Source of the DNA: Opitutales bacterium
GTDB lineage: Bacteria; Verrucomicrobiota; Verrucomicrobiia; Opitutales; UBA9783
Assembly: GCA_046881885.1 (NCBI GenBank)
Contig: JBKSMP010000012.1
Location: 1-20,470, forward strand
Reading direction: 5' to 3'
Length of the DNA stretch: 20,470 nt
Positions 1 through 16,911 of this stretch are shown here, piece by piece. The position numbers and the translations under genes were made by a program. Position 1 is the stretch's first letter. Every line of letters begins with the position of its first letter. Below the pieces are notes generated by a model that was given only the letters and a program-made list of their open reading frames with translations, was not told the origin of the DNA and made no database searches.

Positions 1-153
1 CTCACACATTTTTCAAACTTTTCTTGCTTGACTCCGCTGATCCTTCGTAAATACTTCTTCTTGAGTAGGGTTTTTTTCATATTTTACTTTTATCCTACTC
101 ACTTTTGTTTTTCAATCCTTTTATGCGTTTTCTTTTATTCAGACTTTTGCAGG

Positions 154-531: not shown

Positions 532-573
532 AAATTAAAACTTTTAGGTTTGGTATAGGAAAAATTTACGGGT

Positions 574-595
574 AAATCTCGTAGATTTTTATTTT
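574..595 (+). terminator. weak hairpin plus T-tract downstream of the 125-aa ORF
   Basis: aaatct (574-579) pairs with agattt (583-588) across a 3-nt loop, followed by ttatttt. The stem is only 6 bp and AT-rich, so this is tentative. Confidence 0.2.
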
Positions 596-623
596 GGCAG
601 GATGTTTGCTACATGTAATTTGT

Positions 624-1724
624 ATGAATAATGGTAATCTCGGTATATCACAAAAATCTAGTTTGACTAGTGATTATATAATTGATCAACCTTCAAATAA
701 TTCCACTAAAAGTATCCCTAAATTTTCTGAACAACTTGCCAAGCCTGGACAATCAATGTCGTCTAATTTAAAAAGATCAATAAGAAAAGTAAAGTATAGT
801 ATCGGATATTTATTTTCGTCGAAAACCAAAAGAAGTAAGAAATTAAAAGAATGTATAGATGGTTTTAAAGGAAATATAACAGATGAAGATATTAAAAAAG
901 TTTTGTACTCTGAAAGTTATAGTCCACGTATTGCAAAGGCTTTAATCCTTAGTGATAAAGTTGATATAAATCAGAAAGTAATTATTCTCAATAGCGGAAT
1001 ATTTAAAGATGGATTGGGATATGGGAGTAAATCTTGGCCTGATGCAATTTCTTTTCGTGCAGTTGACGATTTTTTAAATTCTGAATACTGTACTAAAGAG
1101 ATTGTAGCAGCTTTAATTCTTTGTGATAAAGTAAATGTAAGAGGAAAAAGGAAAATTTTAATGCAAGCGTATCCAAAGGGTATTACCGATGAGCAAATGG
1201 AGGTGTTTTTAAAGAATAAAAATAAAAATGTTAAAGCTCGTCGGAAAGTTATGGTGGCTTTAATCTCTAGCGAAACAGTTAATGTAGATAAGAAAATGGA
1301 TATTCTAGGCCGAGTATATCAGAAAGGTATTGACAAAACCACTTTTCAAAAGTTCTTAAAAACAAAATCAAAACCTCTTTTTGAGGCTTTGTTATTTAGT
1401 GAAGTAGTTACTATCGACCAAAAGGTGATGATACTAAATAAAGGATTTTATAGTATTCCTGACGATAAAATTAATCAGTTTTTAGCAAATAACCATTGTA
1501 CTACAAAACTCAAAATTGCTTTAATTCTTAGTAAGATTCTTAGTGTGGATAGGAAGACGGAGATTCTTGGACAAGCGTTTCTTGAAAATATTTCCGATGA
1601 TCAAGTTACTGAGTTTTTAAACTCAAGAAACTGTACTAAAGAAGTTGTAGATATTTTGTTAAACAGTGATAAAGTCACAGAGGCACAAAAACAAACTATT
1701 CGAAATTGGAAGCCAAGCAGATAA
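624..1724 (+). CDS. tandem-repeat protein: disordered S/N/K-rich N-terminus plus six 42-57-aa helical-looking modules; effector-like, function unknown
   Basis: The ORF track gives 594..1724 with a TTG start. The first ATG is at 624 (MNNGNLG...). Six modules share the pattern I-[TSP]-D-[DE]-x-[IVM]-x-x-F-L-x(3-8)-[ALIV]4-S-x-x-V-x-[VI]-[DN]-x-K-x-x-I-L. There is no signal peptide and no obvious SD sequence. Confidence 0.6.
   Translation: MNNGNLGISQKSSLTSDYIIDQPSNNSTKSIPKFSEQLAKPGQSMSSNLKRSIRKVKYSIGYLFSSKTKRSKKLKECIDGFKGNITDEDIKKVLYSESYSPRIAKALILSDKVDINQKVIILNSGIFKDGLGYGSKSWPDAISFRAVDDFLNSEYCTKEIVAALILCDKVNVRGKRKILMQAYPKGITDEQMEVFLKNKNKNVKARRKVMVALISSETVNVDKKMDILGRVYQKGIDKTTFQKFLKTKSKPLFEALLFSEVVTIDQKVMILNKGFYSIPDDKINQFLANNHCTTKLKIALILSKILSVDRKTEILGQAFLENISDDQVTEFLNSRNCTKEVVDILLNSDKVTEAQKQTIRNWKPSR
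876..1703 (+). repeat. in-frame array of six divergent protein-level repeats
   Basis: Module starts fall at ORF residues 95, 152, 197, 246, 288 and 333: ITDEDIKKVL..., ISFRAVDDFL..., ITDEQMEVFL..., IDKTTFQKFL..., IPDDKINQFL..., ISDDQVTEFL... Each is followed by a hydrophobic ALILSDKV-type segment and a K-x-x-IL segment. The repeats are divergent at the DNA level. Confidence 0.6.
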
Positions 1725-1830
1725 AAGCTTGATAAATTCATTCCTTAGTCTTTCCTTTTTACCTACGCTTTATTCTTTACTTAAATCGTAAATTCTTTTA
1801 ATTAATAAGGTGAGTTTTAAGGTAATTTTT

Positions 1831-3414
1831 ATGAGTAAAGATGATACATTAGATGCTTTCAAAGAGCGATTGGAGCAAGCTTTTAGTCAAATTCCAAATT
1901 CTTTCTCTGATTTGAATTTTAAAAAAACGACTCATGGTACAAACGAGGAAAGATCGATGCAAACGGATGTAGAAACTGAGAATTTCATCAAAACGATAGA
2001 AAATTTTAATTTAAAGCCAAAGGATTTAAAGAATTACCTGGATCGTTATGTTATCAAGCAGCATGAGGCTAAAAAGGTGCTTTCGGTAGCCATTTGCGAT
2101 CACTACAATCATGTTCGTGATTGCATTGAGCATCCTGAAAAGGCCGACCAAATGTATCATAAACAAAACGTTTTGGTGCTTGGGCCGACAGGGGTTGGTA
2201 AGACCTATCTTATTCGTAATATTGCTAAGCGTATTGGTGTTCCTTTTGTCAAAGCCGATGCGACAAAGTTTTCCGAAACGGGTTATATTGGTGGGGATGT
2301 TGAGGATCTGGTTCGTGATCTTGTTAAGGTCGCCAATGGTAATGTTGATTTGGCTCAATATGGTATTATTTATGTTGATGAGATCGATAAAATTGCTTCG
2401 ATGGGGAATTCTCAAGGGCGTGATGTATCCGGTCGTGGTGTACAGATCAATTTGTTAAAGTTGATGGAAGAAAGCGATGTTAACTTGGTGACACCGACTG
2501 ATATGATGGGCCAATTACAGGCGGTTATGGATATGCAGAGAGGGCAGGGGAGTAAAAAGAAAACGAAGATTAATACCCGCCATATTTTGTTTATTTTTAG
2601 CGGTGCTTTTGATAAATTAGCGGAATTGGTTAAACGTCGTATCGATCAAGGGACGATTGGTTTCAATGTTATGCCTTTATCGGATGAAGCCGATGCACAG
2701 AATTATTTACATCAAGTGCAGACCCAAGATTTTATCCAATACGGATTTGAGCCTGAATTCATTGGTCGTATTCCGATTCGTGTTGCTTGTGATCCGCTTA
2801 ATAAGGTTGATTTAGCTCGTATCTTAATCGATGCAGAAAGTTCTATTTTAAAGCAGTATAAGGACGATTTTAATGGTTATTCCATTAATATGGAGATTAC
2901 CAATGAAGCTATCCAGGAAATTGCAGCTAAAGCGGAAAAAGAGAAAACCGGTGCACGAGGCTTAATGACCGTGTTTGAAAAAACTTTACGTAATTTTAAA
3001 TTTGAGCTGCCGTCATCGGGTATTCATTTTTTTGAGGTTAATACCGATACGGTAGCAGATCCGGAAAAGGCCTTACATAACCTACTTTTGCAAAATCAAT
3101 CTTTGCTGCATAATCAGCGAATGGCGGATATAGAGATGTATTGTTCGGTCTTTCAGAAAGAGAATAATTTATCAATTCGCTTTACGGAAGAGGCGGTAAA
3201 AGAGCTTATTCGTCAAAGTATTTTGCAAGACAAGACGATTCCTAATCTTTGTGCGGAAATGTTTAAGGATTTGGCTTATGGTTTGAAAATTGTTGCTCGG
3301 AACGAAGAAAAGGATGCATTTGAATTGGATAAAGATTTTATCTTAGATCCGCAAAAAACGATTTCTCAGTGGATTGTGGGTAGTTTTCCGCAAAAACAGA
3401 AAGAAGGAGAATAA
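1831..3414 (+). CDS. ClpX/HslU-family AAA+ unfoldase, atypical: no N-terminal zinc-binding domain, and a ~120-aa C-terminal extension
   Basis: Motifs seen: Walker A GPTGVGKT, pore-1 loop GYIG, Walker B IIYVDEIDK, RDVSGRGVQINLLKLME (ClpX RDVSGEGVQQALLK-like), an IGF tripeptide (GTIGFNV) and sensor-2 GARGL. The ATG at 1831 follows taaggt, which is a better start than the track's GTG at 1810. There is no Cys in the first ~90 residues. Confidence 0.85.
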   Translation: MSKDDTLDAFKERLEQAFSQIPNSFSDLNFKKTTHGTNEERSMQTDVETENFIKTIENFNLKPKDLKNYLDRYVIKQHEAKKVLSVAICDHYNHVRDCIEHPEKADQMYHKQNVLVLGPTGVGKTYLIRNIAKRIGVPFVKADATKFSETGYIGGDVEDLVRDLVKVANGNVDLAQYGIIYVDEIDKIASMGNSQGRDVSGRGVQINLLKLMEESDVNLVTPTDMMGQLQAVMDMQRGQGSKKKTKINTRHILFIFSGAFDKLAELVKRRIDQGTIGFNVMPLSDEADAQNYLHQVQTQDFIQYGFEPEFIGRIPIRVACDPLNKVDLARILIDAESSILKQYKDDFNGYSINMEITNEAIQEIAAKAEKEKTGARGLMTVFEKTLRNFKFELPSSGIHFFEVNTDTVADPEKALHNLLLQNQSLLHNQRMADIEMYCSVFQKENNLSIRFTEEAVKELIRQSILQDKTIPNLCAEMFKDLAYGLKIVARNEEKDAFELDKDFILDPQKTISQWIVGSFPQKQKEGE

Positions 3415-3415
3415 A

Positions 3416-5380
3416 ATGGATACGGATCATTCTTTGCTCAATATTGCTCAAGAGGGTAGGGGACTTGCCTTCGATATGGTTGCTAAAGCGAATTCGGGGC
3501 ATTTAGGTTTGCCATTAGGGTGTTCGGATTGCTTTGCGGTGTTATTCGGAAAGTTTTTGCGGTATTTACCCAACAATCCACGTTGGATCAACCGTGACCG
3601 GTTTATTCTTTCCGCGGGTCATGGAAGTGCACTGTTATATACCTATTTGCACCTAAGTGGTTATCCGATAACGCTAGAGGATCTAAAACAGTTTCGACAG
3701 CTCAATAGCTGTACGCCAGGGCATCCCGAATTTGGTGTTACGCCAGGAATTGAAGCTACCACAGGGCCACTAGGGCAGGGAATTGGCAATGCGGTCGGTA
3801 TAGCGCTTTCACAGAAGAAATTAGCTGCGCAGTTTAATACCGAACAGTATACGATTTTTGATAATTGTGTGGTTTGTCTCTGTGGCGAAGGTTGTTTGCA
3901 GGAAGGAGTTGGCCAAGAAAGTATTGCATTGGCGGGTCTTTGGAAGCTCGACAATTTGATCCTGATTTACGATTGTAACGAAATTACCTTAGATGCTTCA
4001 GCTAACGTTTCTCAGTGTGAAGATGTGCGCGCAAAATTCGAAGCAATCGGTTGGGATGTCTTTGAAGTTGATGGGCATAATGTAGATGAAACAGAAATAA
4101 CCTTAAATACTTGTAGGGAGCGAAAAGGCAAGCCGCACCTGATTATCATGAAGACAGTTATTGGCAAAGGTCTTGCTATTGAAGGTACGGCCAAAGCTCA
4201 TGGTCCAGCAGGCGTTAAGGAACAAGCAGCTTTTAAGGAAAAACTTGGATTGCCTACAGATCAGCCTTTTTACGTTTCTGAAAAGACTTACCAATTTTTT
4301 GAAAAGCATCGTAATCGTTTACAAAAAGCTTATCGAGCTTGGTCGGAAAAGTTTGAAGTTTGGGCCAAAGAATATCCGGAACAAGCGGATTTATTCGTTC
4401 AGAAAAAGAAATTATCTCATGAATTCTTTGAAATATTACCGGAATCTTCTCCAAAAGCTATTGCAATACGTACTTGTGCTGGAGATATTCTGAATATTTG
4501 TTCCAAAGACTTACCGCATTTGTTAACTGGCAGTGCGGATTTATTTGAATCTGTAAAGAATTATATCCAAGACGGTGGCGATTTTTCGGCAGAGAATTAT
4601 AAGGGCAGAAATCTATTCTTTGGTATCCGTGAGCATGCGATGGGTGCGGTTTTGAACGGTATTGCTTATGATGGCTTTTTCAGGCCTTCTGGATCGACTT
4701 TTTTCGTCTTTTCAGATTACTTGAAACCGGCTTTACGTGTAGCTGCTCTATCGCATTTGCCCGTTATTTACTTTTTTTCACACGATTCAATTGCTGTGGG
4801 AGAAGATGGTCCTACGCATCAACCGATTGAGCAATTAGCAGGCTTGCGTAGTATGCCCAATGTTCATATCTTTCGTCCGGCAGATACCGATGAAACTATT
4901 GCCTGTTTTGAGCTTGCTCTGAAGCGTACTGAAGGTCCTAGCGTGCTGGTACTTTCTCGCCAAGATTTACCTAAATTGCCTTTGCCGAGCTCAGAAATAC
5001 GTCAAAACGCCTTAAAAGGTGCGTATATTGTAAAAAAGGAAGAAGAGGCCTTGGAGCGCATCCTTATTGCAACCGGTAGCGAAGTCTCGTTGGCTTTGCA
5101 AGTTGCGGAACGTTTAGGGACTAATACCCGTGTGGTATCCATGCCTTGTGTTGAAGTCTTTTTGCAGCAAGACCAAGCTTACCAAGAGAGTATTTTGCCT
5201 GTATCCTGTACGCAACGGATCGCTATTGAAGCTGGGAGTTCGCAACCCTGGTACCGATTTGTTGGTCTTAACGGCCTGATTATTGGCATCGATTCCTTCG
5301 GTAAAAGCGCTCCGAGTTTGGATTTAGCAAAAAACTTTGAATTGACGATCGAAGGTGTTGGGAAGAAGATTAAAAGCTAA
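3416..5380 (+). CDS. tkt: transketolase
   Basis: Motifs seen: SGHLG, GEGCLQEGVGQES and SHDSIAVGEDGPTHQPIEQLAGLR, in a ~655-aa protein. The ATG at 3416 is preceded by GAAGGAG and lies 1 nt after the upstream stop. The track's 14-codon N-terminal extension overlaps that upstream gene. Confidence 0.93.
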   Translation: MDTDHSLLNIAQEGRGLAFDMVAKANSGHLGLPLGCSDCFAVLFGKFLRYLPNNPRWINRDRFILSAGHGSALLYTYLHLSGYPITLEDLKQFRQLNSCTPGHPEFGVTPGIEATTGPLGQGIGNAVGIALSQKKLAAQFNTEQYTIFDNCVVCLCGEGCLQEGVGQESIALAGLWKLDNLILIYDCNEITLDASANVSQCEDVRAKFEAIGWDVFEVDGHNVDETEITLNTCRERKGKPHLIIMKTVIGKGLAIEGTAKAHGPAGVKEQAAFKEKLGLPTDQPFYVSEKTYQFFEKHRNRLQKAYRAWSEKFEVWAKEYPEQADLFVQKKKLSHEFFEILPESSPKAIAIRTCAGDILNICSKDLPHLLTGSADLFESVKNYIQDGGDFSAENYKGRNLFFGIREHAMGAVLNGIAYDGFFRPSGSTFFVFSDYLKPALRVAALSHLPVIYFFSHDSIAVGEDGPTHQPIEQLAGLRSMPNVHIFRPADTDETIACFELALKRTEGPSVLVLSRQDLPKLPLPSSEIRQNALKGAYIVKKEEEALERILIATGSEVSLALQVAERLGTNTRVVSMPCVEVFLQQDQAYQESILPVSCTQRIAIEAGSSQPWYRFVGLNGLIIGIDSFGKSAPSLDLAKNFELTIEGVGKKIKS

Positions 5381-5519
5381 AGGATATCCCCGTATAAATT
5401 AAAAAATGGCCAACTCCACATTGCCTTGATAAATGCAGATGATACCAAAGAATATTCTTTCCATATCGCTGCCAAAGACCTTGTCGGCGAGTGATTTTTG
5501 AAACGAGAAAGCATTTGAT

Positions 5520-5547
5520 TTGACTTCAGAGATGATCTGTTTATAAT
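5520..5547 (+). promoter_or_regulatory. near-consensus sigma70-type promoter for the pilin-like gene
   Basis: TTGACT (5520-5525), a 16-nt spacer, then TATAAT (5542-5547). This sits ~17 nt upstream of the ATG at 5564, with AGGA at 5557-5560. Confidence 0.4.
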
Positions 5548-5563
5548 CATTACTGTAGGATTT

Positions 5564-6163
5564 ATGAAAAATAAAGCAAGAGGGTTTTCGGTATTGGAAG
5601 TTTTGATATCTGCAGGCATTTTTACAATCGTTATTTTAGGGATCTCACAAACGGTATTGTTGATGCATCGTTATGCGCGTGGAAACCTTTGCCAAATGCA
5701 GGCCCATTTGCTCGCCACAAGCTACTTTGAACAGCTTCTTTGTCATACTCATCCCTTAGAATTAAATGGCAAAACAGGCAATGTATCGTTATTGAATTTA
5801 GAAAAGCCAACAACTACGCATGCTTTTGAATTTAATGTAAAAACGACAACAAGTACGACACAAGCGGATCCTAAAATTAATAGTTTCGATCTGCCTCTGA
5901 TCGAAGGTGAAGATACAATGACTGTCTACCTCCAAGTACAAGTGGAAGAATCACCGATGTATGATTATGATGAGAAAGATCGTACAAAAATAAATCCTCC
6001 AGAAGGCTTTCAATCCCTGCGTATGACATATTGGTGGACTAGTCCTTTTGCAACAACCAATGGCGAAACAGAAGGAAGCTTGGAATATTTAGCGACATTA
6101 CCTAAATCCGAATTATATGCTATCCGCCCTATCTTACCGGATGAGGCCGATTATGAAGGTTAA
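5564..6163 (+). CDS. prepilin-type N-terminal cleavage/methylation domain protein (type IV pilin or T2SS pseudopilin-like)
   Basis: The N-terminus MKNKARG|FSVLEVLISAGIFTIVILGI matches the class III signal: G-F-(S/T)-L-x-E plus a hydrophobic helix. The C-terminal domain is unrecognised. An AGGA RBS is present. Confidence 0.65.
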   Translation: MKNKARGFSVLEVLISAGIFTIVILGISQTVLLMHRYARGNLCQMQAHLLATSYFEQLLCHTHPLELNGKTGNVSLLNLEKPTTTHAFEFNVKTTTSTTQADPKINSFDLPLIEGEDTMTVYLQVQVEESPMYDYDEKDRTKINPPEGFQSLRMTYWWTSPFATTNGETEGSLEYLATLPKSELYAIRPILPDEADYEG

Positions 6164-7197
6164 AATTGGGTTAAAAAGCGAGTATCGTTTTGATAAAACC
6201 TGCGAATATCTTCAATGCCGTAAAGCAACATCGCCAAACGTTCAACCCCAAAACCAAACGCAAATCCTTGCCATTCGTCAGGATTAAGCCCTGCATTACT
6301 TAAAACATTCCGATTAACCATACCACATCCCCAAACTTCAATCCAAGTATCTTTGAATTTTCCAAGTTTTGGAACAAAAATATCCATCTCAAAACTCGGT
6401 TCGGTAAATGGGAAATAGCTTGGGCGCATACGCGTTTTAAACGCTTTACCAAAGAACTTTTGGACAAAATAATCTAAAGTTCCCTTTAAATCGACAATCG
6501 AGGTTTTTTTGTCAATGCACAAACCTTCGATTTGATGGAAATTGAAATTATGCGTAGCGTCTACTGTATCGCGGCGGAAAACTCGTCCCGGCGAAATAAC
6601 CTTAAACGGTGGTGTATGTTTCGCTAATGTTCGAATTTGAACGGTCGATGTCTGCGTACGCAATAAATAGAATTCGTCTTCTTTTTGTGAAGTTGTGCCG
6701 ATAGCCTTTCCTTCTTCAAAGAAAAAAGTATCTTGCGCAGCTCTCGCAGGATGATGCTTAGGTACATTTAATGCATCAAAACAGAACCATTCTGTTTCGA
6801 TTTCTGGTCCCTCTGCTACAGCATATCCTAACTGCTTGAAAATCGACAAAATGCGCTGTCTTGTTTGTGTAAGCGGATGCAAAGACCTTGCTTGTGGATA
6901 AGGACCTTCTAAACTAGGATCGATAGGGTCCCCTAACTTCTTAAGACGTTCTTGGGTTTGTAGCTCATTTTGCTTTTGGCTCAACAAAGCTTCTATGGCT
7001 GCCTTAACGCCATTAATTTCCTTACCCGATTGAATTTTTTCCTCTAAAGGCAAATTCTTTAAATTTTTTAATGACGTAATTAACGTGCTCTTAGGTCCTA
7101 AGAACTGCGTCTTTACTTCTTGTAAGGCAACTACACTCTTACAACTTTGAATAGCGGTTAAAGCCTCTGATTTTAACGTTTCAAAGGTAGTTGCCAT
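6160..7197 (-). CDS. pheS: phenylalanine--tRNA ligase alpha subunit
   Basis: Class II aaRS motifs are present: FRRDTVDATHNFNFHQIEGL and GFAFGFGVERLAMLLYGIEDIR. Length is 345 aa and the gene is downstream of rplT. Confidence 0.95.
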   Translation of the reverse strand: MATTFETLKSEALTAIQSCKSVVALQEVKTQFLGPKSTLITSLKNLKNLPLEEKIQSGKEINGVKAAIEALLSQKQNELQTQERLKKLGDPIDPSLEGPYPQARSLHPLTQTRQRILSIFKQLGYAVAEGPEIETEWFCFDALNVPKHHPARAAQDTFFFEEGKAIGTTSQKEDEFYLLRTQTSTVQIRTLAKHTPPFKVISPGRVFRRDTVDATHNFNFHQIEGLCIDKKTSIVDLKGTLDYFVQKFFGKAFKTRMRPSYFPFTEPSFEMDIFVPKLGKFKDTWIEVWGCGMVNRNVLSNAGLNPDEWQGFAFGFGVERLAMLLYGIEDIRRFYQNDTRFLTQF

Positions 7198-7206
7198 AAA
7201 GAGAAC

Positions 7207-7566
7207 TTATGAAACTAAAGTTTTCAAAACTTGTTCAACAAGCTGATTGAAGGCGGCTTCATTATGAATCGCCAATTCACTCAATTGCTTACGATCAAGC
7301 TCTATGTTTAACTTCTTTAAGCCATTGATGAAACGGCTGTAAGAAATACCAGCTGCACGGCAAGCAGCATTAATACGCACAATCCATAATTGACGGAATT
7401 CGGACTTCTTTTTGCGGCGATCGCGAAAAGCGAAGGCACCTGAACGCCAAAAAGCGTCGTGTGCATAACGATACAAGCGCGACTTGTTACCGAAATAACC
7501 GCGTGTCTGCTTGAGAATGCGTTTACGACGTTGTCTTGTTGCGACTCCATTTGTTACTCTTGTCAT
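7207..7566 (-). CDS. rplT: 50S ribosomal protein L20
   Basis: The 119-aa sequence MTRVTNGVATRQRRKRILKQTRGYFG...FRDRRKKKSEFRQLWIVRINAA is typical of L20. Confidence 0.95.
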   Translation of the reverse strand: MTRVTNGVATRQRRKRILKQTRGYFGNKSRLYRYAHDAFWRSGAFAFRDRRKKKSEFRQLWIVRINAACRAAGISYSRFINGLKKLNIELDRKQLSELAIHNEAAFNQLVEQVLKTLVS

Positions 7567-7641: not shown

Positions 7642-7842
7642 TTAAAAATTCACGAAAGGCATAGCCTCTTTAACCGTATGGGACAAAGCTGTACTATCTA
7701 AGCATCTGTCACTACCGGCTCTGCGCAAACGCACAGGAGACTTGTGTCGCAAAAAATGGCGATAACCAGGTTTGCGAAACACGACTTTACCTGTTCCTGT
7801 AATTTTAAACTTTTTAGCAATCGATTTTCTAGTCTTTTGCAT
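7642..7842 (-). CDS. rpmI: 50S ribosomal protein L35
   Basis: This is a 66-aa basic protein, MQKTRKSIAKKFKITGTGKVVFRKPGYRHFLRHKS..., immediately upstream of rplT. Confidence 0.88.
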   Translation of the reverse strand: MQKTRKSIAKKFKITGTGKVVFRKPGYRHFLRHKSPVRLRRAGSDRCLDSTALSHTVKEAMPFVNF

Positions 7843-7847
7843 GCATT

Positions 7848-10340
7848 CTAATGAACAGATTTTATCCCTTTTTGTAAAGCTAATTTTTTACGTTTTTCAC
7901 GAACCGTTTTTTGCGGCAATACAAAACGAAAAGGATTAAAGGTTAAAGTCCATTGTGGATTTTCGAAAGTACCTTGTACAGAGGCCGCAAAGCCTTTAGA
8001 AATAGGTTGAAATAGTTGGAAAAGTTGCTTCATAATGGGCAATTTTAACTGTTGATAATCCAAGAAAGAAAAATGTACTTTAGCATTTAATTCGCTTGTA
8101 TCGAGATGTAATTCTCCAGAAACATTGGCGCGAGTACTAGGACCTGAAAGAACTGCATTTTGTGTTGAAATATGCTTTTCTGTAAAGGTAAAGTCGGAAA
8201 TTAAACAATCCAATTCAATCGTAGGTTTCCATTTAAACCGCTTTGAAAACAGATGTTGTAGGGGACCTAACAAATGGATTTGGGAAAGCTGTGGATTGTC
8301 AAAACGTACCCAACCTTTTCCCGATACCTGCAATTCCTTTTCTAGGTCTCCATTTCCTTCTAAGGTTAAATCTAGCGTTCCCATATAAGCTGAACGATTT
8401 TTTTCCGGAATAGCGTTATTCCAATTTCTTAAAAGTGGATGTTGCAATAAAAACTCTGTTTGTAAATGGTCGGCCTTTAGCTCAAAATCAAATTGCTTTT
8501 GAAGGCAAGTATAACGTCCCTTAAAAGGTGCGTTGTTACCTACTATTCCCTGTACAGATTCAAAGGAAAAGCTTTCTGGCTTCCAGTGATAACAAAATTT
8601 TAAATCTTGCAGCGGAAAATGATATAAGGAGGTTTGTGGAATAGCCACAATAAGATTCAAGGTTTCTTGAGGATCTGCTTCTGAGTAAAGTTTGCCATTA
8701 AAATCAGACTGAACAAGTGAATTTTTTTGAAACAGATCAGCAATTTTATTACAGTAAGGTTGTTCAATAAAATCATTAATGAGATTTTTCCACGTGCTTA
8801 TGTAAAAATTACCAGAACCCTTAAATTTCCAAAATTCTTCCCCAGTTTTTTCACAATTATAAGGCCAGTGAATCGTACAATTTCCTTCTCCTTCTTGTGT
8901 ATTCAAATTTTTGATATCCAACAAACAATACCCTGGACGATACCCAAAAACAAGATTTAAAGATTTTATCTTAGAGCTTTTGTGTCTGAAATCATCTGCG
9001 GAAACATTACCATATAGTACGTTTTTATTCGAGTCTTTGTTCCAGTGAATAATGAAGTTGGTTTGCGGAAAATTTTTATAAAACTCGAAGTTTTCAAAAA
9101 AAGGCTGCCACCAATTAGGCAAAAAATCCTTTAATGGGTAGGTTAAGTGGGGCGATAGACAACCATCAATCCACAAAAAACCTTTGCTGCTTGCCAAACT
9201 ATGCCCTATACGACACTTAAGCCATTGTTCTTTTCCATAAAATTGTAACTGTCCTAAAAATTGTCGTCCTTTCTGATAGTGACCATAAGCTTGAGCTGAA
9301 GAAAATCTTTCGCCATCTATCAAAAAATCGCGAGTATATGCCGTTGCTCCAAAAGCATTTCTTGTTCCATGCAGTGAGAAAAATAAGTTCTTATCTAAAT
9401 TAATCGAATAAGGGATGGGATAGATTTTTGTGATTGCAGAAAATTTCGGCGTTAACCAACCTTTACACGAAAAAATCTTAAAATCTCGAGAGGTTATATT
9501 AAATGTTCCTTTTCCGGCAAAGTTCAAATCGGAAGAATTCCCTGCAAATGTTACAAAATTATGGTTTCCAACAACAAAATCTTTAGCTTGAAAAAATAAG
9601 GAAAGCTTTTGGAGGTTACCTGCACTCAAATTGCTTAAAAAACAACCATTTTCCCAATGTGAAAAGTTATTTCTTGTTGCTTGAGCTTTCAGAAAAACAT
9701 GAGCGAGATATACTTTCTCGTACCAAACCCCATTTGCCCATAATTTTAAATTTTCCTTTCGGTTTAATGGACACGAAAAACAAAAATCGACCATTTGTAT
9801 ATCCCCGCCCTGTAAACCTTTACCTGCTCCGTAAATCTTTACAGATTGTTTGGAGGAAGTCGCAAGCTTTAAACTTAAATGCTCGATATTGGGAAGCTTT
9901 GTTGTTGAAGATTTCCGAAAAAGTTTGGTTATTTCAGAAATTTTTATACAATTTAAGCAAGAAATTTGTATGTTTTTTATCGTATCGTTCTTCAAATTTA
10001 GAAAGCCACGTATTTTTCCAAATCGGCCATAAAGACGGCCATTAATGGCATAGAAACGTTCTTCCTGATAAGACAACTGGCCATCTTCAATGCAATATTG
10101 GAGTTCTCCAAATAGCGATTTCCAGCGTATTTTTAAATATTTACATGAAAAATTTTTATAATTAAAATTTGAAAATAATAGACAGCGTGATTTTATCTGT
10201 ATTTTTTGAACATTAAGCTGCAGGCGAAGTTTTAACTTATCTAAAAGGCTTTGGGGAAGCTCGCAATCGAATTCGCAAACGGTCAACACGCTTATGCCAA
10301 CAATAAGCAAAATCCATTGTAAAGCTAAAAACTTTCTCAT
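7848..10340 (-). CDS. large N-terminally anchored envelope protein, AsmA-like C-terminus (tentative)
   Basis: The protein is 830 aa with an N-terminal hydrophobic segment (LALQWILLIVGISVLTV) and aromatic, beta-strand-like composition. The C-terminal NVSGELHLDTSELNAKVHFSF...SVQGTFENPQWTLTFNP resembles the G-T-x-x-N-P ending of AsmA, TamB and YhdP-type proteins. Its ATG overlaps the upstream stop as ATGA (10337-10340). Confidence 0.55.
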   Translation of the reverse strand: MRKFLALQWILLIVGISVLTVCEFDCELPQSLLDKLKLRLQLNVQKIQIKSRCLLFSNFNYKNFSCKYLKIRWKSLFGELQYCIEDGQLSYQEERFYAINGRLYGRFGKIRGFLNLKNDTIKNIQISCLNCIKISEITKLFRKSSTTKLPNIEHLSLKLATSSKQSVKIYGAGKGLQGGDIQMVDFCFSCPLNRKENLKLWANGVWYEKVYLAHVFLKAQATRNNFSHWENGCFLSNLSAGNLQKLSLFFQAKDFVVGNHNFVTFAGNSSDLNFAGKGTFNITSRDFKIFSCKGWLTPKFSAITKIYPIPYSINLDKNLFFSLHGTRNAFGATAYTRDFLIDGERFSSAQAYGHYQKGRQFLGQLQFYGKEQWLKCRIGHSLASSKGFLWIDGCLSPHLTYPLKDFLPNWWQPFFENFEFYKNFPQTNFIIHWNKDSNKNVLYGNVSADDFRHKSSKIKSLNLVFGYRPGYCLLDIKNLNTQEGEGNCTIHWPYNCEKTGEEFWKFKGSGNFYISTWKNLINDFIEQPYCNKIADLFQKNSLVQSDFNGKLYSEADPQETLNLIVAIPQTSLYHFPLQDLKFCYHWKPESFSFESVQGIVGNNAPFKGRYTCLQKQFDFELKADHLQTEFLLQHPLLRNWNNAIPEKNRSAYMGTLDLTLEGNGDLEKELQVSGKGWVRFDNPQLSQIHLLGPLQHLFSKRFKWKPTIELDCLISDFTFTEKHISTQNAVLSGPSTRANVSGELHLDTSELNAKVHFSFLDYQQLKLPIMKQLFQLFQPISKGFAASVQGTFENPQWTLTFNPFRFVLPQKTVREKRKKLALQKGIKSVH

Positions 10341-12070
10341 AAATCCCTAGAATTCCAGACAGAGGACATTTTATCCCAATAAGGTTTATGTGTTATTTGG
10401 AAAAGAGTATCGATCCAATCTTGTGATAAGGTAAAGGTTTGATCGTCATAACGTCCTGATTGAAAATCTCCATTGAGACGTTCCCAAAAACATAATTCAT
10501 AGGACCGTTTTTCTTGTGTAGACGTTTGAGTTGTAAAGATAATGCGTTGTGGATTTCTGGGTACTATATGAAAATCTACAGGAGTCTTTAACCATTTTTT
10601 AGCTTGTAAAAACCGCAAGGTTTGCAATTGTTTTGCACTAAAATGAGGTTGTACGGTAAGTTTTTCCCCATTTTCTTTTATCCATTCGACCGCAACTAAT
10701 TTTTCATCTTTTTCCCATTGCCATAAGGTTTTTTCTTGAAAGTGTTCTGCCGTTAATTCGGCTAAATCAGATGCGACTAATGTTAATTGGAACCAAGCAG
10801 CATCGTTTTCTAATTGTAAGAAATAGGTATGGTCTTGGTAATAAAAATTACAATGGTATGGCTTATTGTCAGCTGTTACGGTTAACTTAAAAGATGTATA
10901 GGTTTCTAACGAAGGCAATTCATTGGGTGTCAAGAACTTCTCAACATACAAACTATTAATAAGACGAATAAAGCGTTTAATTGCCTTTGGTGCTGCTTTT
11001 TGCGCTTGAACAAAACTATCATTTGCGCTTTCAATCACTTCCCATTTTCCTCCTGAAATGGCTTGCAAGGTAATACCCAAAGCATCACGTTGATAAGTGA
11101 TTTGGTTGATAGCATCGAGCTTGAAATCAAATAAATTCCTTTCTCGCAAAGTTTCTTGTGCATGTAAAAGTCGCTCTATAACGTTCGATTTGAAGACAAA
11201 TAAAGGTCCCGTTTCATTCCGTTGTGCAATATACGTTTTTCCATCGGCAACATCTGTATCTGGAAGTATTTTAAAAAGCTTCGATTGTTGTTTGTCGCTT
11301 ATTTTTAGATGGTAGGTTTGTGTATCGGAAGCAAATTGAGGAATCCATTTTTCCAATTCTGATGGAGTTAAAAAATGTTTCAATTCCAATGTCTGCAATT
11401 GCGTACAAATAGTTTCTACATGGCTTGAATTGGCCTTAGCTTCTACAGGTGTTTTGATAAACCAATCCTGGGCTTGTTTTTGTAAATAAAGATTACTTTG
11501 AGGTGTATCAAAAGCTAAAGTTTGAATGGTCTCAAGGGTACAAAAAAATGGTTTACTCCATTCCTCTAATGATCGACAAAAACTCTCCATGAATTGCGGT
11601 TTTAGAACAAAAATCTTGTTAGTTTCATTTTCAAATACATAGATTTTATCATTGGATGCGTGTACTGTACTGATTTGTAATAAATAAGTATGTTCTTGGG
11701 TATTGCATTTTATTGTGCAAAATGGTGTTGTAAGTCCGTAATTTTCTAAATCTTTTTTATCTTTTACATCAAAGGCCAAAAGTGGTTTTAAAAGAGCTAA
11801 TTCTTTTAAAAATTGATCAACCGCCAACGGATTTGCTTCCCATTCTACTGGGTAGGTTAACTTCCAAAGTCGATCTTCTTTGACAAGCTGTATATGGGTT
11901 TTGGGTTCAGAAAAGTTGAAGTCTATAGCTTGAATTTGGATGGCTTCTTGCTGTATTTTTAACTCCGGACTTATGGATATATTTTGTGGATGCGATTTAA
12001 TGTAAAACCAAACACTTATCCAGGCTCCATTTAGTAAAAGAAGAAAACAAGTAAGTCCTAGGCGCAACAT
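10337..12070 (-). CDS. membrane-anchored periplasmic protein, DUF4340-like by position
   Basis: The protein is 577 aa with a single N-terminal TM helix (LTCFLLLLNGAWISVWFYI). It starts 3 nt after the GldG-like gene. The family assignment rests on the recurrent ABC, ABC-2, GldG, DUF4340 gene order, not on a motif I can read. Confidence 0.5.
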   Translation of the reverse strand: MLRLGLTCFLLLLNGAWISVWFYIKSHPQNISISPELKIQQEAIQIQAIDFNFSEPKTHIQLVKEDRLWKLTYPVEWEANPLAVDQFLKELALLKPLLAFDVKDKKDLENYGLTTPFCTIKCNTQEHTYLLQISTVHASNDKIYVFENETNKIFVLKPQFMESFCRSLEEWSKPFFCTLETIQTLAFDTPQSNLYLQKQAQDWFIKTPVEAKANSSHVETICTQLQTLELKHFLTPSELEKWIPQFASDTQTYHLKISDKQQSKLFKILPDTDVADGKTYIAQRNETGPLFVFKSNVIERLLHAQETLRERNLFDFKLDAINQITYQRDALGITLQAISGGKWEVIESANDSFVQAQKAAPKAIKRFIRLINSLYVEKFLTPNELPSLETYTSFKLTVTADNKPYHCNFYYQDHTYFLQLENDAAWFQLTLVASDLAELTAEHFQEKTLWQWEKDEKLVAVEWIKENGEKLTVQPHFSAKQLQTLRFLQAKKWLKTPVDFHIVPRNPQRIIFTTQTSTQEKRSYELCFWERLNGDFQSGRYDDQTFTLSQDWIDTLFQITHKPYWDKMSSVWNSRDL

Positions 12071-12073
12071 AAA

Positions 12074-13495
12074 TTATTCCTTTCGTAATACACTGGTCAT
12101 TAACCCTATAATGAAGAAAATAAAGGGAAGAATTAAAAAATTAAGCGTTAATAATAAAAACTTTTGTTGCGATAATGTAATTTTCAGAGGTGCCTCCATT
12201 TCAACCGTAAATTGTGGCGTATGGATTTCGTTTTCTAAATACTGACAAATTTGCATAAAAAACGGCTTATTCCCTAAGGCATTAATATGGCCGTTATCAA
12301 GCCAGTCGGCACAGGCTACAAAAACGCTTTTCCCAAGCGGTAGTTTTAAATTAAAATTATTGTTTTTAACAGAAGTATATAGCGAACAAAGAATATGCGG
12401 ACCTCTTATATCACGTGTAGGATTAAACGATAAGTCTTTAAAGGTTTCAGAATGTTTGGCCCAACTCGTTTCAGAAGAAAAAGCACAATGCTCGCACCGA
12501 TCATCCTTTTTAAGTTCTTGTAACATGGTTGTAAGACCAAAGAGCAAACCTACATTTTTATTCACAATAGCTTGCGTTAAAACATTTGGTTTGAATCTAC
12601 GAACAATTAAATTACCATTTGTACTTACAAAATCTTTACTTTCATCAAGCAATAAACTTCCATCACAGTATAAACCAATCGCTTCTAATAAGGGATTTAG
12701 ACCATGTTCATAAATTGGATGTAATCCAACAAAAAGGTGCCCATTGCGTTTTAATAGAAATTCTTTTATAACATCACATTCTTGGGGCAAAAAAGGTAGT
12801 TGTGGACCACAAATAAAGAGCGTATTGGCATCTTCGGGTAAGGTCAAACAATCGTCTATGTACTTTACTTCAAAATTAAGCTGTTGAAGCAGTTGACAAA
12901 CACTTGAACCTCCACGTTCTAGGTGGACATTTTTGCCATCTAGTTCCCCGTGACCTGTACACCAATAAAGGATTTTGGGAGGATTAGATAACTGCGTCAA
13001 GGTTGTTAGTAACGTACTTTCGCCTACAAAATGTTCTTCGTGAAAAAACTCTTCTTTTGTTAAGAACTTATTGCGTTCTCCCAAAACGACCAAAACACCT
13101 TCTGTTTCTGAAAAGCTATACTTTTCTTTCAACCACAAAATTTCTTGCGGCATTTTTAAAGAATGCAGAGAACGAAAAGAGAGTGATGTATTTAAGCCTA
13201 TACACGCTTCCTGAAAGGTTCGCATTAAGTCTTTAAAATAAGATTCAAAGTTTGTTTCTTCTTCATGCCCGTCGTTTAACAAAAAGATTTTAACAGGCTG
13301 TGAAAGGGTTTTAAGAAAAGCCTTGGTTTCTGTATGCAGTGTATGATTGCGTTTTTTTGAAAAGTCAAAACGAAGATGGCAGTGGGTCAGAGTAAGTTGT
13401 AAGCCTAGTAAAAGTGTTATTAATAAAACAATTTGCAAACAACCATTGGCAATTCGAACGCGATTAAAATATTTGAAATTATCTAACAAGCTCAT
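12074..13495 (-). CDS. GldG-like auxiliary component of an ABC-2 transporter (ABC_transp_aux-type)
   Basis: The protein is 473 aa with an N-terminal TM helix (IANGCLQIVLLITLLLGLQL) and a C-terminal TM helix (LLLTLNFLILPFIFFIIGLMTSVL) bracketing a large soluble domain. It has an ATGA overlap with the permease gene (13492-13495). Confidence 0.65.
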   Translation of the reverse strand: MSLLDNFKYFNRVRIANGCLQIVLLITLLLGLQLTLTHCHLRFDFSKKRNHTLHTETKAFLKTLSQPVKIFLLNDGHEEETNFESYFKDLMRTFQEACIGLNTSLSFRSLHSLKMPQEILWLKEKYSFSETEGVLVVLGERNKFLTKEEFFHEEHFVGESTLLTTLTQLSNPPKILYWCTGHGELDGKNVHLERGGSSVCQLLQQLNFEVKYIDDCLTLPEDANTLFICGPQLPFLPQECDVIKEFLLKRNGHLFVGLHPIYEHGLNPLLEAIGLYCDGSLLLDESKDFVSTNGNLIVRRFKPNVLTQAIVNKNVGLLFGLTTMLQELKKDDRCEHCAFSSETSWAKHSETFKDLSFNPTRDIRGPHILCSLYTSVKNNNFNLKLPLGKSVFVACADWLDNGHINALGNKPFFMQICQYLENEIHTPQFTVEMEAPLKITLSQQKFLLLTLNFLILPFIFFIIGLMTSVLRKE

Positions 13496-14238
13496 CGCAA
13501 TAATTTATTTTCTAAAACTGTTGTTGTTAAGATAAAAAACAAAAGGCCGCCTCCTATGTGAAAAAGCAGAGGCCGAATATCTAAGCTTCCTTTACAAAGA
13601 TCATCTAATTGCTGAAAACAATCCATGTAGATACCTAAATCATTTTCCAAATAGCCAATTTCGCAAAAGATTTTAATACAAACAAGGCCAATAAAGAGAA
13701 AACAAAAGCACAAAAACCCTGCTAGGGATTGTGTACGTGTTAAGCTGCTTGCAAATACACCGATACAAATAAAGAGGAAACTACTGCTACAAATGAAAAT
13801 AAGGCCTCCTATCAATGGCGTCGATTGAATAAGGGGTGCCGACAAATCTCCTTGTAAATGGTAATCTGCAAAAAAAGGATAAATTAAATTGAGTCCCCAT
13901 AACAAAAGATAAAAACAATAAACTGAAAAAACTTTACTTAAAACAAGACTCCTCGTACCAATGGGGGTGGAAAGAAGACTTTCTAAAATCCCAGAACGTT
14001 GATCTTCCGATAGCGTACGCATCGTTAGTAAAGGAATAATAAACAAGCTAGGAATCCAAAAAATTTCAAAAAAACTTTGCAAACAAGGGGTTGTTGTTGG
14101 ATTTTGGGCATTTAAGAACAAAATATAGAGAAAGTTAAAGCCCATAATAAAAAGAAATAATGCAGCAATAAAGTAAGAACTTGCGTGTCGTTTTAGTCGA
14201 TGGATTTCTTGCAAAAATAATAAATAAAAGCTCTTCAT
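13492..14238 (-). CDS. ABC-2 type permease (GldF-like)
   Basis: This is a polytopic hydrophobic protein of ~248 aa. The ATG at 14238 forms an ATGA overlap with the ATPase stop, which I prefer to the track start at 14256. Confidence 0.8.
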   Translation of the reverse strand: MKSFYLLFLQEIHRLKRHASSYFIAALFLFIMGFNFLYILFLNAQNPTTTPCLQSFFEIFWIPSLFIIPLLTMRTLSEDQRSGILESLLSTPIGTRSLVLSKVFSVYCFYLLLWGLNLIYPFFADYHLQGDLSAPLIQSTPLIGGLIFICSSSFLFICIGVFASSLTRTQSLAGFLCFCFLFIGLVCIKIFCEIGYLENDLGIYMDCFQQLDDLCKGSLDIRPLLFHIGGGLLFFILTTTVLENKLLR

Positions 14239-15194
14239 GGTTGCGTTTTTTTCCAAGCAAATTGCGTCAATTTAAGGAAAAGCGATTCTAAAGTTGGTTC
14301 GTTTTTAAAAAATTGTTGTACACTGTATCCTTTTGCGAAAATCCATGCCATCAAATCTTTCTCAAAGTTTGCATGATTGCATTGTGTCTCTAATATAAAA
14401 GTAGACGATGATTCTTGTTTTTCTTGCTTTACACAGCGTATATCAAAAGAAGATTGTTTCAAGTCTTCTAAGAAAGAATCCCAAGGGTTTCCTAAAATAA
14501 GCGTATATCGTATTTGTTTAAAATAGTGGTTTCGTAAATTTTCAGAAGTACCATTTGCTACCAATTCTCCTTGATGAATGATAAGCAATTGCGAACAAGC
14601 TGCTTCGATTTCAGGTAAAATATGACTCGAGAAAATGACCGTTGCCTCACCACGTAATTGTTGCAAAAGATCACGAATCCCCAAAATTTGATGTGGATCT
14701 AGACCAATCGTAGGTTCGTCCAATATAATCAGTTGTGGACGTCCTAATAAGGCTTCTGCGATACCTACCCTTTGTCGAAAACCTTTAGAGAGGGTACCTA
14801 TCATCTTTTTAGCTGCAGTCCGTTTAAGATCACAGCGCTCCATAACATAACCTACCGCATTGGAAACCTTTTCAATACGCTTCAATTGTGCACGAAACCG
14901 CAAAAATTCCTCCACGCGCATATCGTCCGGCAACGGGTTGTTTTCAGGCATATAACCGAGGCTGGCTTTAAGCGTCTGTAGATGTGTTGTTAAGGGCATT
15001 TTGTTGATATAAACACAACCTTCTGTAGCAGGCAATAGACCGCACAAAATTCGCAAAGTCGTACTTTTCCCAGCCCCATTTGGACCTAAAAAACCAACAA
15101 TCTCTCCTGGCTTTATTTCGAAATTCAATTTTCGAATAGCGGCTTTAGACCCATAGAATTTACTTAAATTTTTTACAATAATCTCTGCCGCCAT
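14235..15194 (-). CDS. ABC transporter ATP-binding protein (GldA/CcmA-like exporter ATPase)
   Basis: Motifs seen: Walker A GPNGAGKST, signature LSKGFRQRVGIA, Walker B LIILDEPTIGLD and H-loop SSHIL. I prefer the ATG at 15194 (MAAEIIVKNLSKFYG) to the track's TTG at 15239. Confidence 0.9.
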   Translation of the reverse strand: MAAEIIVKNLSKFYGSKAAIRKLNFEIKPGEIVGFLGPNGAGKSTTLRILCGLLPATEGCVYINKMPLTTHLQTLKASLGYMPENNPLPDDMRVEEFLRFRAQLKRIEKVSNAVGYVMERCDLKRTAAKKMIGTLSKGFRQRVGIAEALLGRPQLIILDEPTIGLDPHQILGIRDLLQQLRGEATVIFSSHILPEIEAACSQLLIIHQGELVANGTSENLRNHYFKQIRYTLILGNPWDSFLEDLKQSSFDIRCVKQEKQESSSTFILETQCNHANFEKDLMAWIFAKGYSVQQFFKNEPTLESLFLKLTQFAWKKTQP

Positions 15195-15374
15195 AATTAC
15201 AAACACTATTAGTTTTCCAAAAAATTTCTTATGAATCAACTCTTTTTCAACGTAAAATAAACGAACGGGATAAAACGTGCTAACGCTATTAAGCTACATC
15301 CTAAAATTGCTAAAAAAATACCTTTACTTCAAAAATGAATTCACGTAGTGTAAATCAGAACATTAACAGTTTGC

Positions 15375-16151
15375 ATGGATGTAACTGAAAAAATTGCTTT
15401 AAGGCATGTTAATAAAGTTTTTTTATCGGAACGAGGTCCGGTTAAAGTTTTAGAAAATCTTTCTTTTTCTGTAAAAAAAGGAGAGTTTGTAGCTATTTTA
15501 GGAGCAAGTGGTTGTGGAAAATCGACACTTTTAAATCTTATTGCAGGGTTGGATTCTGCTACTTCAGGGGAAATTTTTGTTAACGAGGATGATACGAAAC
15601 AACCTGAGCGTCATCGTATGATGTTGTTCCAAGAATCTGCTTTATTTCCTTGGTACAATGTAATCGAAAATGTAATGTATGGCCTTCGTTTTAAGCAAGG
15701 GTTGGATAAGTCGGCATATTACGATGTTGCACTGTATTATCTTTCTCTTGTAGGCTTAAAAAATCATGCCAATTCTCGTGTTTATCAATTGTCTGGAGGC
15801 ATGAAACAGCGGGTGGCTTTAGCGCGAGCACTTGCGCCCAATCCAGAAATTTTGCTTATGGATGAGCCTTTCAGCGCTCTCGATGCTCTTACTAGTGAGC
15901 AACTTTATCGTTATGTGCAATCGATTTGGGAATCACAACAGAAAACAGTTCTATTAGTTACGCATAATGTCCGTGAGGCAGTTGTTTTAGCGCAACGTAT
16001 CCTAATATTAGCGCCTCATTCTGGTAAGCTTTTAAAAGAAATAGAAGTAAATTTGCCCTATAAGCGCACTATTTACGATCCAGAGGTATTAAAAAAAGCA
16101 GATGAAATTTTTTCTATTCTGCACAATGAAACAAATTATGAACTTTCTTAA
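15375..16151 (+). CDS. ABC transporter ATP-binding protein, nitrate/sulfonate/taurine (NitT/TauT) type
   Basis: Motifs seen: Walker A GASGCGKST, FQESALFPW, signature LSGGMKQRVALARAL and Walker B ILLMDEPFSALD. Confidence 0.9.
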   Translation: MDVTEKIALRHVNKVFLSERGPVKVLENLSFSVKKGEFVAILGASGCGKSTLLNLIAGLDSATSGEIFVNEDDTKQPERHRMMLFQESALFPWYNVIENVMYGLRFKQGLDKSAYYDVALYYLSLVGLKNHANSRVYQLSGGMKQRVALARALAPNPEILLMDEPFSALDALTSEQLYRYVQSIWESQQKTVLLVTHNVREAVVLAQRILILAPHSGKLLKEIEVNLPYKRTIYDPEVLKKADEIFSILHNETNYELS

Positions 16152-16911
16152 ACGACCCTTTGTTCAATCTTTATTGTACTTCTTTTTAGCTGTTGTATTA
16201 TGGCAATGGATAGCAAGTTTTGAAAATTATTCGGACTTGTTTTTTCCCAAACCTATGCAAGTCGTTCATTTTTTATGGGAAGGATTTGTAAGCAATGGTA
16301 TACTTTGGTCTGCTATTGCAATTAGCTTTAAACGGTTAATTGTAGGATATTTATTAAGTGTTTGTGTGGGTATTCCATTGGGAATGTTTTGCTCGCATTC
16401 AAATTTTTTAAAAAATACCATTCGTAAGTTAGCCCTCGGTTTTCAAACGCTTCCAAGTATTTGTTGGGTACCCCTGACTTTGCTTTGGTTTGGACAAAGT
16501 GATACAGCCATTATTTTTGTGGTTATAATGGGTTCTATATGGTCTCTTATGCTGAGTACTGAGCAAAGTGTACAACGGGTTCCTGAGATTTATATTCGTG
16601 CAGCTACTACTATGGGGGCTCGAAAATTTGTTCTTTTCAGAACTGTTGTTTTTCCGGCAATTTTACCGTCGCTTGTAGTTTCCATGAAGCATAGTTGGGC
16701 TTTTGCTTGGCGTTCCCTTATGTCTGCTGAAATTTATATTAGCGCAATTAGCGGCCTTGGGCTTGGTCAACTTCTCCATTATGGACGCGAGGTTCAGGCT
16801 ATGGATCAAGTTGTAAGCATTATCTTTATCCTTACACTTATAGGTTTGTTTATCGAACATTACTTATTTTTGCCTATCGAGAAGCTCATCGAAAAACGTT
16901 GGGGAAAATAG
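16102..16911 (+). CDS. ABC importer permease (binding-protein-dependent transport family, SsuC/TauC-like)
   Basis: This is a polytopic protein with an EAA-type loop (AATTMGARKFVLFRTVVFPAILP). The start is ambiguous: ATGs at 16102, 16126 and 16138 all overlap the ATPase 3' end. Confidence 0.85.
   Translation: MKFFLFCTMKQIMNFLKRPFVQSLLYFFLAVVLWQWIASFENYSDLFFPKPMQVVHFLWEGFVSNGILWSAIAISFKRLIVGYLLSVCVGIPLGMFCSHSNFLKNTIRKLALGFQTLPSICWVPLTLLWFGQSDTAIIFVVIMGSIWSLMLSTEQSVQRVPEIYIRAATTMGARKFVLFRTVVFPAILPSLVVSMKHSWAFAWRSLMSAEIYISAISGLGLGQLLHYGREVQAMDQVVSIIFILTLIGLFIEHYLFLPIEKLIEKRWGK

Follow-up and report, generated by a model that had tools for sequence, protein, structure and literature searches.

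A conserved Opitutales operon that places a remote AsmA-like gene behind a GldAFG-related ABC module and a DUF4340 gene: a candidate energy-coupled lipid bridge

In this work, we analyzed a stretch of 20,470 nucleotides (nt) from an Opitutales bacterium (contig JBKSMP010000012.1, positions 1 to 20,470; hereafter the window), and in particular five consecutive open reading frames (ORFs) of its minus strand that fill positions 7848-15194. They encode an ATP-binding cassette (ABC) ATPase, an ABC-2-type permease, a GldG-like protein, a DUF4340 protein and, in fifth place, a protein of 830 amino acids (aa) whose AsmA-like nature and partnership with the preceding four are the subject of this report. 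The guanine plus cytosine (G+C) content of the window is about 35 %, and the closest genomic homologues of the 830-aa protein, identical to it at 92 % and 78 % of positions over the full length, come from metagenome-assembled genomes labelled 'uncultured Opitutales bacterium'. The host is a low-G+C member of the Verrucomicrobiota, a phylum with two membranes. The ORF list and direct reading of the junctions gave the following layout.

14235..15194, minus strand: ABC transporter ATP-binding protein, GldA-like, 319 aa; ATG start, Pfam ABC_tran match.
14235..14238, minus strand: ATGA stop/start overlap from ATPase to permease, by direct sequence reading.
13492..14238, minus strand: ABC-2-type permease, GldF-like, 248 aa; sub-threshold ABC2_membrane matches and about six hydrophobic segments.
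13492..13495, minus strand: ATGA stop/start overlap from permease to GldG-like gene, by direct sequence reading.
12074..13495, minus strand: GldG-like accessory protein, 473 aa; Pfam ABC_transp_aux match, N- and C-terminal anchors.
12071..12073, minus strand: 3-nt spacer TTT between the TAA stop of the GldG-like gene and the ATG start of the DUF4340 gene, by direct sequence reading.
10337..12070, minus strand: DUF4340 protein, 577 aa; Pfam DUF4340 match, N-terminal anchor.
10337..10340, minus strand: ATGA stop/start overlap from DUF4340 to AsmA-like gene, by direct sequence reading.
7848..10340, minus strand: remote AsmA-like protein, 830 aa, very probably so named on family-level profile evidence and AlphaFold2 secondary structure.

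This arrangement of five genes, three ATGA overlaps and one 3-nt gap is the one that the original prediction had described, and both the ORF list and the reading of the junctions confirmed it. The ATPase ORF has an alternative upstream opening (TTG at 15239); the starts chosen here agree with those of the orthologues at locus L001, one of the homologous loci compared below, which are 317, 249, 473, 577 and 813 aa long. As homologues of all five ORFs occur elsewhere in the same order, these are real genes and not chance ORFs.

The ATPase matched Pfam ABC_tran (E-value, E, 5.3e-31), with a weak C-terminal DrrA1-3_C domain, and hydrophobicity analysis found no membrane segment in it; its top NCBIfam model was GldA (TIGR03522, E 6.2e-76), with 255.7 bits, under the cutoff of 402.6. 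The permease fell slightly under the gathering scores of four ABC2_membrane Pfam families (27.8/31.6 bits for ABC2_membrane_3, the best, followed by 24.9/27, 22/25 and 21.5/27.2 bits) and matched NCBIfam GldF (TIGR03518, E 5.7e-17) with 62.5 bits against a cutoff of 288.5, while its orthologues at loci L005, L020, L024 and L025 carry ABC2_membrane_2/3 matches. In the GldG-like protein, Pfam ABC_transp_aux (PF09822) scored 37.0 bits, above its gathering score of 34.7, DUF7088 matched weakly, and the GldG equivalog model TIGR03521 failed with 22.9 bits against a cutoff of 389.85. Its membrane segments comprise residues 12-41 and 444-472, and a profile made from ten orthologues matched the GIFT domain of IFT52 (PDB 5fms, E 6.3e-7; 5fms/5fmr, E 6e-7 to 5e-6) and, weakly, WBP1/OST48 (E 0.0023). 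The protein is anchored at both ends and carries a periplasmic GIFT-type domain. For the fourth protein, Pfam DUF4340 (PF14238) matched in two stretches with E 9.4e-31 and 107.9 bits, the gathering score being 25; sequence and profile searches of the PDB found no solved relative. With its N-terminal hydrophobic segment at residues 2-24, it is an N-terminally anchored protein with a large periplasmic part. All four domain guesses made earlier for this module were thereby recovered, that of the permease at sub-threshold scores. Judged by their model scores, the first three proteins are related to GldA, GldF and GldG of Bacteroidota gliding but are not orthologous to them. A tblastn search with the GldG-like and DUF4340 proteins against plasmids returned no match. 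A transposon study in Verrucomicrobium spinosum reported an essential DUF4340 domain in VSP_RS39600, which we take as a hint only.

The family of the 830-aa protein was delimited by profile searches. Besides seven close relatives, a first search returned a single more remote one, P0008, with 21 % identity in the C-terminal half (E 8e-7); P0008 matches Pfam YhdP weakly, and NCBI names one of its relatives, P0015, 'AsmA-like C-terminal region-containing protein [Opitutales bacterium]'. An exhaustive profile search then gave 776 representative clusters, mostly of 800-970 aa, when E <= 1e-3 was required, and 468 when the limit was lowered to E <= 1e-10; a word-indexed profile search added no further relatives. 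Among 53 sampled family members, Pfam YhdP (PF13116) was matched by 34, all sub-threshold (the best with 39.1 against 46 bits), Pfam AsmA by three, and the NCBIfam models of AsmA and YhdP by six each. The YhdP Pfam matches are colinear, the N-terminus falling on model positions 6-148, the middle on 199-371 and the C-terminus on 1072-1207; in P0152, for instance, residues 13-148 match model positions 6-148 with E 1e-6, an observation that bears on the Chorein-N-like N-terminal domain expected of AsmA-like proteins. The window protein did not match the YhdP family proper, and no family member examined reached its cutoffs (46 bits for PF13116 and 519 bits for TIGR02099). When a family profile of 102 sequences was aligned by hhalign to E. 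coli AsmA, residues 568-802 paired with 347-579 of AsmA (220 columns, 89.7 %, E 1.8e-6), and residues 707-802 aligned to the C-terminus of E. coli YhdP (69 %, E 4.4e-5). Profile searches of the PDB with two alignments of the family returned noise only. A metagenome scan with one family alignment yielded no more than nine short contigs, and a scan of genome contigs with a narrow alignment returned just the two close relatives from Opitutales named above.

The predicted structure points in the same direction. AlphaFold2 with the 102-sequence alignment gave a model with a predicted local distance difference test score (pLDDT) of 91.2 and a predicted template modelling score (pTM) of 0.71; an earlier run with 16 sequences (pLDDT 51) was discarded. 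The model starts with a helix at residues 2-21, within the single hydrophobic segment of the protein (residues 1-29), and continues with 43 strands of at least 5 residues (mean length 11; 59 % strand), which short helices interrupt about every 70-170 residues. The amphipathicity of the strands exceeds that of within-strand shuffles (z 4.4), as would be the case for a sheet with one hydrophobic face. According to this model, the 830-aa protein consists of an N-terminal inner-membrane helix and a long periplasmic body rich in beta-strands. Because family links, matches to curated models, profile alignment, predicted structure and amphipathic strands converge, we consider it very probable that the protein belongs, as a remote member, to the AsmA-like superfamily. 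The original prediction of an AsmA-like protein is in this respect upheld by the Pfam matches of the family, the profile alignment and the predicted secondary structure, although the window protein itself matches no curated model. As far as its sequence matches indicate, it is not an orthologue or family member of YhdP, TamB, YdbH or GspN.

The strongest sequence signature of the family is a near-invariant WWxxxW/FxxFxF motif (W410, W411, F418 and F420; residues about 409-421, window positions 9077-9115), which lies in a helix-loop segment between blocks of beta-strands. A role for this motif as ABC-docking site was considered and dropped, as a homologue without linkage to an ABC module, that of locus L021, keeps it.

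GspN deserves separate mention, since a different reading of the same family starts from it, namely that the 830-aa protein is an AsmA/GspN-type accessory to assembly or secretion, acting on outer-membrane proteins or secretins, and not a lipid conduit. The Leptospira-type GspN model (TIGR04411, 280 aa) was matched by 35 of the 53 family members at both their N- and C-termini (about residues 30-130 and 700-810 in window protein numbering), with a best E of 1.6e-10 among the 53, and several N-termini of the family match the start of this GspN_Lepto model. Moreover, the best E. coli profile match is to AsmA, which is not among the three paralogues shown to carry phospholipid (PMC10345924), and a pseudopilin-like gene lies 1.7 kilobases (kb) away in the window. 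However, all GspN matches are sub-cutoff (at most 37.1 of the 50 bits required, among ten members examined individually), the model covers 280 aa while the proteins have 830-970, no type II secretion genes occur in the conserved block at any locus examined, and the pseudopilin-like gene is on the opposite strand and not conserved beside the block. The Leptospira-type GspN model is itself, judging from these sequence matches, probably a short AsmA-like protein; the matches to it do not make the 830-aa protein a secretion component, and we regard the assembly reading as improbable.

The association of the five genes was then assessed in 23 loci that contain a homologue of the fifth protein, by scoring their ORFs with hidden Markov models, each built from one of the five proteins of the block together with its orthologues. 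Three of these loci begin within the gene for the fifth protein and carry no information on linkage. Of the 20 others, 19 have a DUF4340 gene immediately upstream in the same orientation, so that the adjacency is clearly not confined to this genome, which the original prediction had named as grounds for refuting it. The full order ATPase, permease, GldG-like, DUF4340, AsmA-like was found in every locus with enough DNA to display it (12 of 12: L001, L003-L007, L014, L020 and L022-L025). The genes of these blocks have a common orientation and are separated by no more than 76 nt, and in all linked loci the AsmA-like gene comes last, directly behind the DUF4340 gene. The order persists at identities of 39-46 % for the ATPase, 27-39 % for the permease, 22-27 % for the GldG-like protein, 19-25 % for the DUF4340 protein and 18-23 % for the AsmA-like protein. 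We conclude that the block is a conserved verrucomicrobial (Opitutales) envelope operon. In L023, the permease gene (4735-5616) is apparently split in two fragments, possibly by a frameshift or an assembly error.

The surroundings of the block change among these loci. At L005, L006, L020, L022 and L023, and also at L002 and L008, the block is preceded by birA, with or without coaX, and followed by accB-accC; at L024 it is preceded by acpP and followed by a GFO/IDH-lpxB pair, and a phospholipase-D/cardiolipin-synthase-like gene is found near the block of L007. That biotin, coenzyme A, fatty-acid and lipid A genes recur here points, without proving it, to lipid biology. The junctions change as well: the 4-nt overlap between the DUF4340 gene and the 830-aa gene is kept only in the clade of the window, in L007 and in L025, and is replaced by gaps of 11-70 nt in more distant loci. 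Operon membership is conserved, translational coupling is not, and the matched stoichiometry that had been read from the overlaps does not follow from them.

In the window, the block continues into housekeeping genes on one side and is bounded by a divergent intergenic region on the other.

15195..15374, no strand: divergent intergenic region, presumed operon promoter region, inferred from position only.
7642..7842, minus strand: rpmI (ribosomal protein L35), 66 aa, assigned by its translation; same order in L001 and L025.
7207..7566, minus strand: rplT, assigned by its translation and the Pfam labels of the L001 and L025 orthologues.
6160..7197, minus strand: pheS, assigned by its translation and the Pfam labels of the L001 and L025 orthologues.

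As rpmI starts 5 nt past the stop of the 830-aa gene and is followed by rplT and pheS on the same strand, the transcription unit possibly exceeds five genes, and rpmI is probably co-transcribed with the AsmA-like gene. The same downstream order, with Ribosomal_L35p, Ribosomal_L20 and PheS labels, recurs in L001 and L025, but rpmI-rplT-pheS is not kept beside the block outside one clade; there is no infC ahead of rpmI in the window. That the envelope operon apparently runs into ribosomal-protein and pheS genes in the window's clade may be a sign of expression that is constitutive and linked to growth. Within 15195-15374 no promoter-like site was called, the promoter-like and terminator signals of the scanned region did not exceed the expectation from shuffled sequence, and Rfam and tRNA scans of the window gave no matches.

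Other genes of the window are recorded here for completeness. Beyond the divergent region, at 15375-16911 on the plus strand, lies a divergent ABC importer pair of the taurine/nitrate/SaoAP type (ATPase plus BPD_transp_1 permease, with ORFs overlapping by 50 nt) that has no adjoining substrate-binding protein gene and also adjoins the operon in L001, L003 and L004. Convergent on pheS, at 5564-6163 on the plus strand, a gene encodes a protein of 199 aa whose N-terminus carries a methylation motif of the prepilin type (N_methyl, E 1e-4; weakly PilV-like); its neighbours in the window include no further pilus or secretion genes. Also on the plus strand are an unusually long ORF (1810-3414, 534 aa) for a ClpX-like AAA+ ATPase that scored 336 bits, just under the ClpX equivalog cutoff of 359, and a transketolase ORF (3374-5380) following it; in their longest forms these two ORFs share 41 nt, and their true starts are therefore probably further downstream. 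The G+C content drops to 24-31 % at the ends of the window (1-2000 and 19001-20470), compared with 34-42 % elsewhere. Neither the ORFs of these ends (28-531, 594-1724 and 19728-20441) nor two ORFs nearby (16980-17585 and 18039-19583) matched a Pfam or NCBIfam family.

Turning to function, four products of the operon are anchored in the membrane and have large parts in the periplasm, and the remaining one is the cytoplasmic ATPase; all five are in or on the inner membrane. The conservation of the gene order through deep divergence suggests an energy-coupled lipid bridge to the outer membrane. In the mechanism that we propose, the five proteins would act together: the ABC module would draw a lipid, or some other amphipathic molecule of the envelope, out of the inner membrane at the expense of ATP; the GldG-like and DUF4340 proteins, serving as adaptors or as a scaffold, would probably pass the cargo through their periplasmic parts to the groove of the AsmA-like protein, and this groove would carry it across the periplasm toward the outer membrane. 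Our leading guess for cargo and direction is a phospholipid or other acyl lipid moving outward. We assign a probability of roughly one half to a single machine of this kind, in which an ABC extractor feeds an AsmA-like conduit. More tentatively, it might be the first AsmA-like lipid bridge hard-wired to an ATP-driven inner-membrane extractor and loaded by an ABC-2 transporter with GldG-like and DUF4340 adaptors.

Regarding direction, ABC-2-type transporters (Wzm/Wzt, TarGH, ABCA/ABCG types) are overwhelmingly exporters or extruders, and the fatty-acid synthesis genes found as neighbours (accB-accC, acpP, birA) suit biogenesis better than repair. Both points speak against one machine working in retrograde or maintenance mode, with the ABC transporter pulling mislocalised lipid back from the outer membrane via the AsmA-like groove. 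Such a machine would draw on the same linkage evidence as outward export and would follow the logic of Mla, an ABC transporter that drives retrograde lipid traffic (PMC10345924), and nothing in the sequence fixes the direction; on balance we find it improbable.

Several observations weigh against a single, energy-coupled machine. The complex of five proteins is drawn entirely from gene order and remote homology, and the loci compared, many of them related, were taken from the head of a single profile search and a single pattern scan and are no unbiased sample, with taxonomy established only for Opitutales. Searched alone, the 830-aa protein found no match in Pfam, NCBIfam or the PDB by sequence, none of the curated AsmA, YhdP and TamB models passing; hhalign gave no match to E. 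coli TamB (DUF490) or YdbH (probabilities of 0.8 % and 0.3 %), and Foldseek against the PDB returned only matches with low template modelling (TM) scores, to ApoB100 and LptD (about 0.15 for LptD). The block contains no gene for an outer-membrane partner, and bulk phospholipid flow via AsmA-like proteins in E. coli needs no ATP (PMC10345924). Finally, P0164 of L021 (881 aa, 9001-11646), which is the most distant among the homologues examined, has no ABC/GldG/DUF4340 block beside it; it is flanked by a SufE gene and the gene of an acyl-activating enzyme of the AMP-binding type, and acpP-fabF lies a few kb off. Therefore, the ABC link is not obligatory across the wider family.

These last points, the unlinked homologue and a flow that is ATP-independent and diffusive in E. 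coli (PMC10345924), would suit an arrangement of co-transcribed genes for separate machines, where the AsmA-like protein is the passive phospholipid bridge of this lineage, equivalent in function to YhdP, TamB or YdbH, and the ABC-2/GldG/DUF4340 module exports another cargo, for example a surface glycan or glycolipid, as has loosely been proposed for GldAFG, both serving envelope growth. That the operon of the window's clade runs into rpmI-rplT-pheS, so that unrelated housekeeping genes can share a unit with it, and that the DUF4340/AsmA-like overlap is not conserved, would fit such an arrangement as well. Nevertheless, the five-gene order is kept despite changing flanks and about 20 % identity, a conservation typical of interacting proteins, and the AsmA-like gene is always last behind DUF4340, while the ribosomal-protein and pheS genes do not stay beside the block outside one clade. 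Separate machines thus appear to us a somewhat doubtful explanation, though one to be taken seriously, and it is the single machine that we compare with known systems in what follows.

The components of the operon are of known kinds; what we regard as new is that a bridge protein of the AsmA-like type is genetically locked to an ABC exporter. With E. coli AsmA and YhdP, the 830-aa protein shares a single N-terminal inner-membrane helix, a long strand-rich periplasmic body and a C-terminal region, its last 235 residues or so aligning to theirs, and its size lies between those of AsmA (617 aa) and YdbH (879 aa). It differs in the WWxxxWxxFxF motif proper to its family and in the position of its gene at the end of an ABC operon. 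For the E. coli paralogues no ATPase partner is known; they pair instead with TamA or YnbE, and the block contains no gene resembling those for TamA/Omp85 or YnbE. The likeness to GldA/GldF/GldG consists of the best NCBIfam models for ATPase and permease and, in the third protein, of a GldG-type ABC_transp_aux/GIFT domain with two terminal anchors. In contrast, the three proteins score far under the equivalog cutoffs, the host is a verrucomicrobial and not a gliding Bacteroidota bacterium, and the block adds the DUF4340 and AsmA-like genes; to our knowledge, the substrate of GldAFG is itself unknown. The Lpt system (LptB2FGC-LptA-LptDE) offers a functional analogy, suggested by gene order, in that an ABC transporter of the inner membrane removes an amphipathic lipid and drives it along an open beta-sheet groove spanning the periplasm. 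There is no homology, however: the window has an ABC-2-type permease instead of LptF/G and an AsmA-like fold instead of a beta-jellyroll, and its block lacks LptC-, LptA- and LptD-like genes. The MCE systems (MlaFEDB, PqiABC, LetAB) likewise couple an inner-membrane transporter, genetically and physically, to a periplasm-spanning lipid conduit, but the block contains no MCE domain and its conduit would be AsmA-like.

In the literature, Kumar and Ruiz present transport by AsmA-like bridges as diffusive, with no known coupling to ATP (PMC10345924). According to reviews on AsmA-like proteins, no inner-membrane partner is known, and coupling to ATP or the proton motive force via such a partner is plausible but unshown. 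We found no description of the combination of an AsmA-like protein with ABC-2, GldG and DUF4340 proteins in the open-access literature searched.

The route of phospholipids to the outer membrane, and what loads, powers or directs AsmA-like bridges, are long-standing problems. An AsmA-like gene locked to an ABC module is a natural experiment that names candidate partners, namely an ABC-2 permease, a GldG-like protein and a DUF4340 protein. Even if the coupling were not real, the family described here, with several hundred clusters, would still define a divergent AsmA-like family missed by current curated models. If it is real, it would provide the first functional handle on the GldG-type ABC_transp_aux and DUF4340 families, both large, widespread and uncharacterised, and the jellyroll of Lpt, the tunnel of MCE proteins and the groove of AsmA-like proteins would each be drivable by an ABC motor. 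Intermembrane lipid export in the Verrucomicrobiota would then be energised and directional, in contrast to the passive diffusive flow proposed for E. coli.

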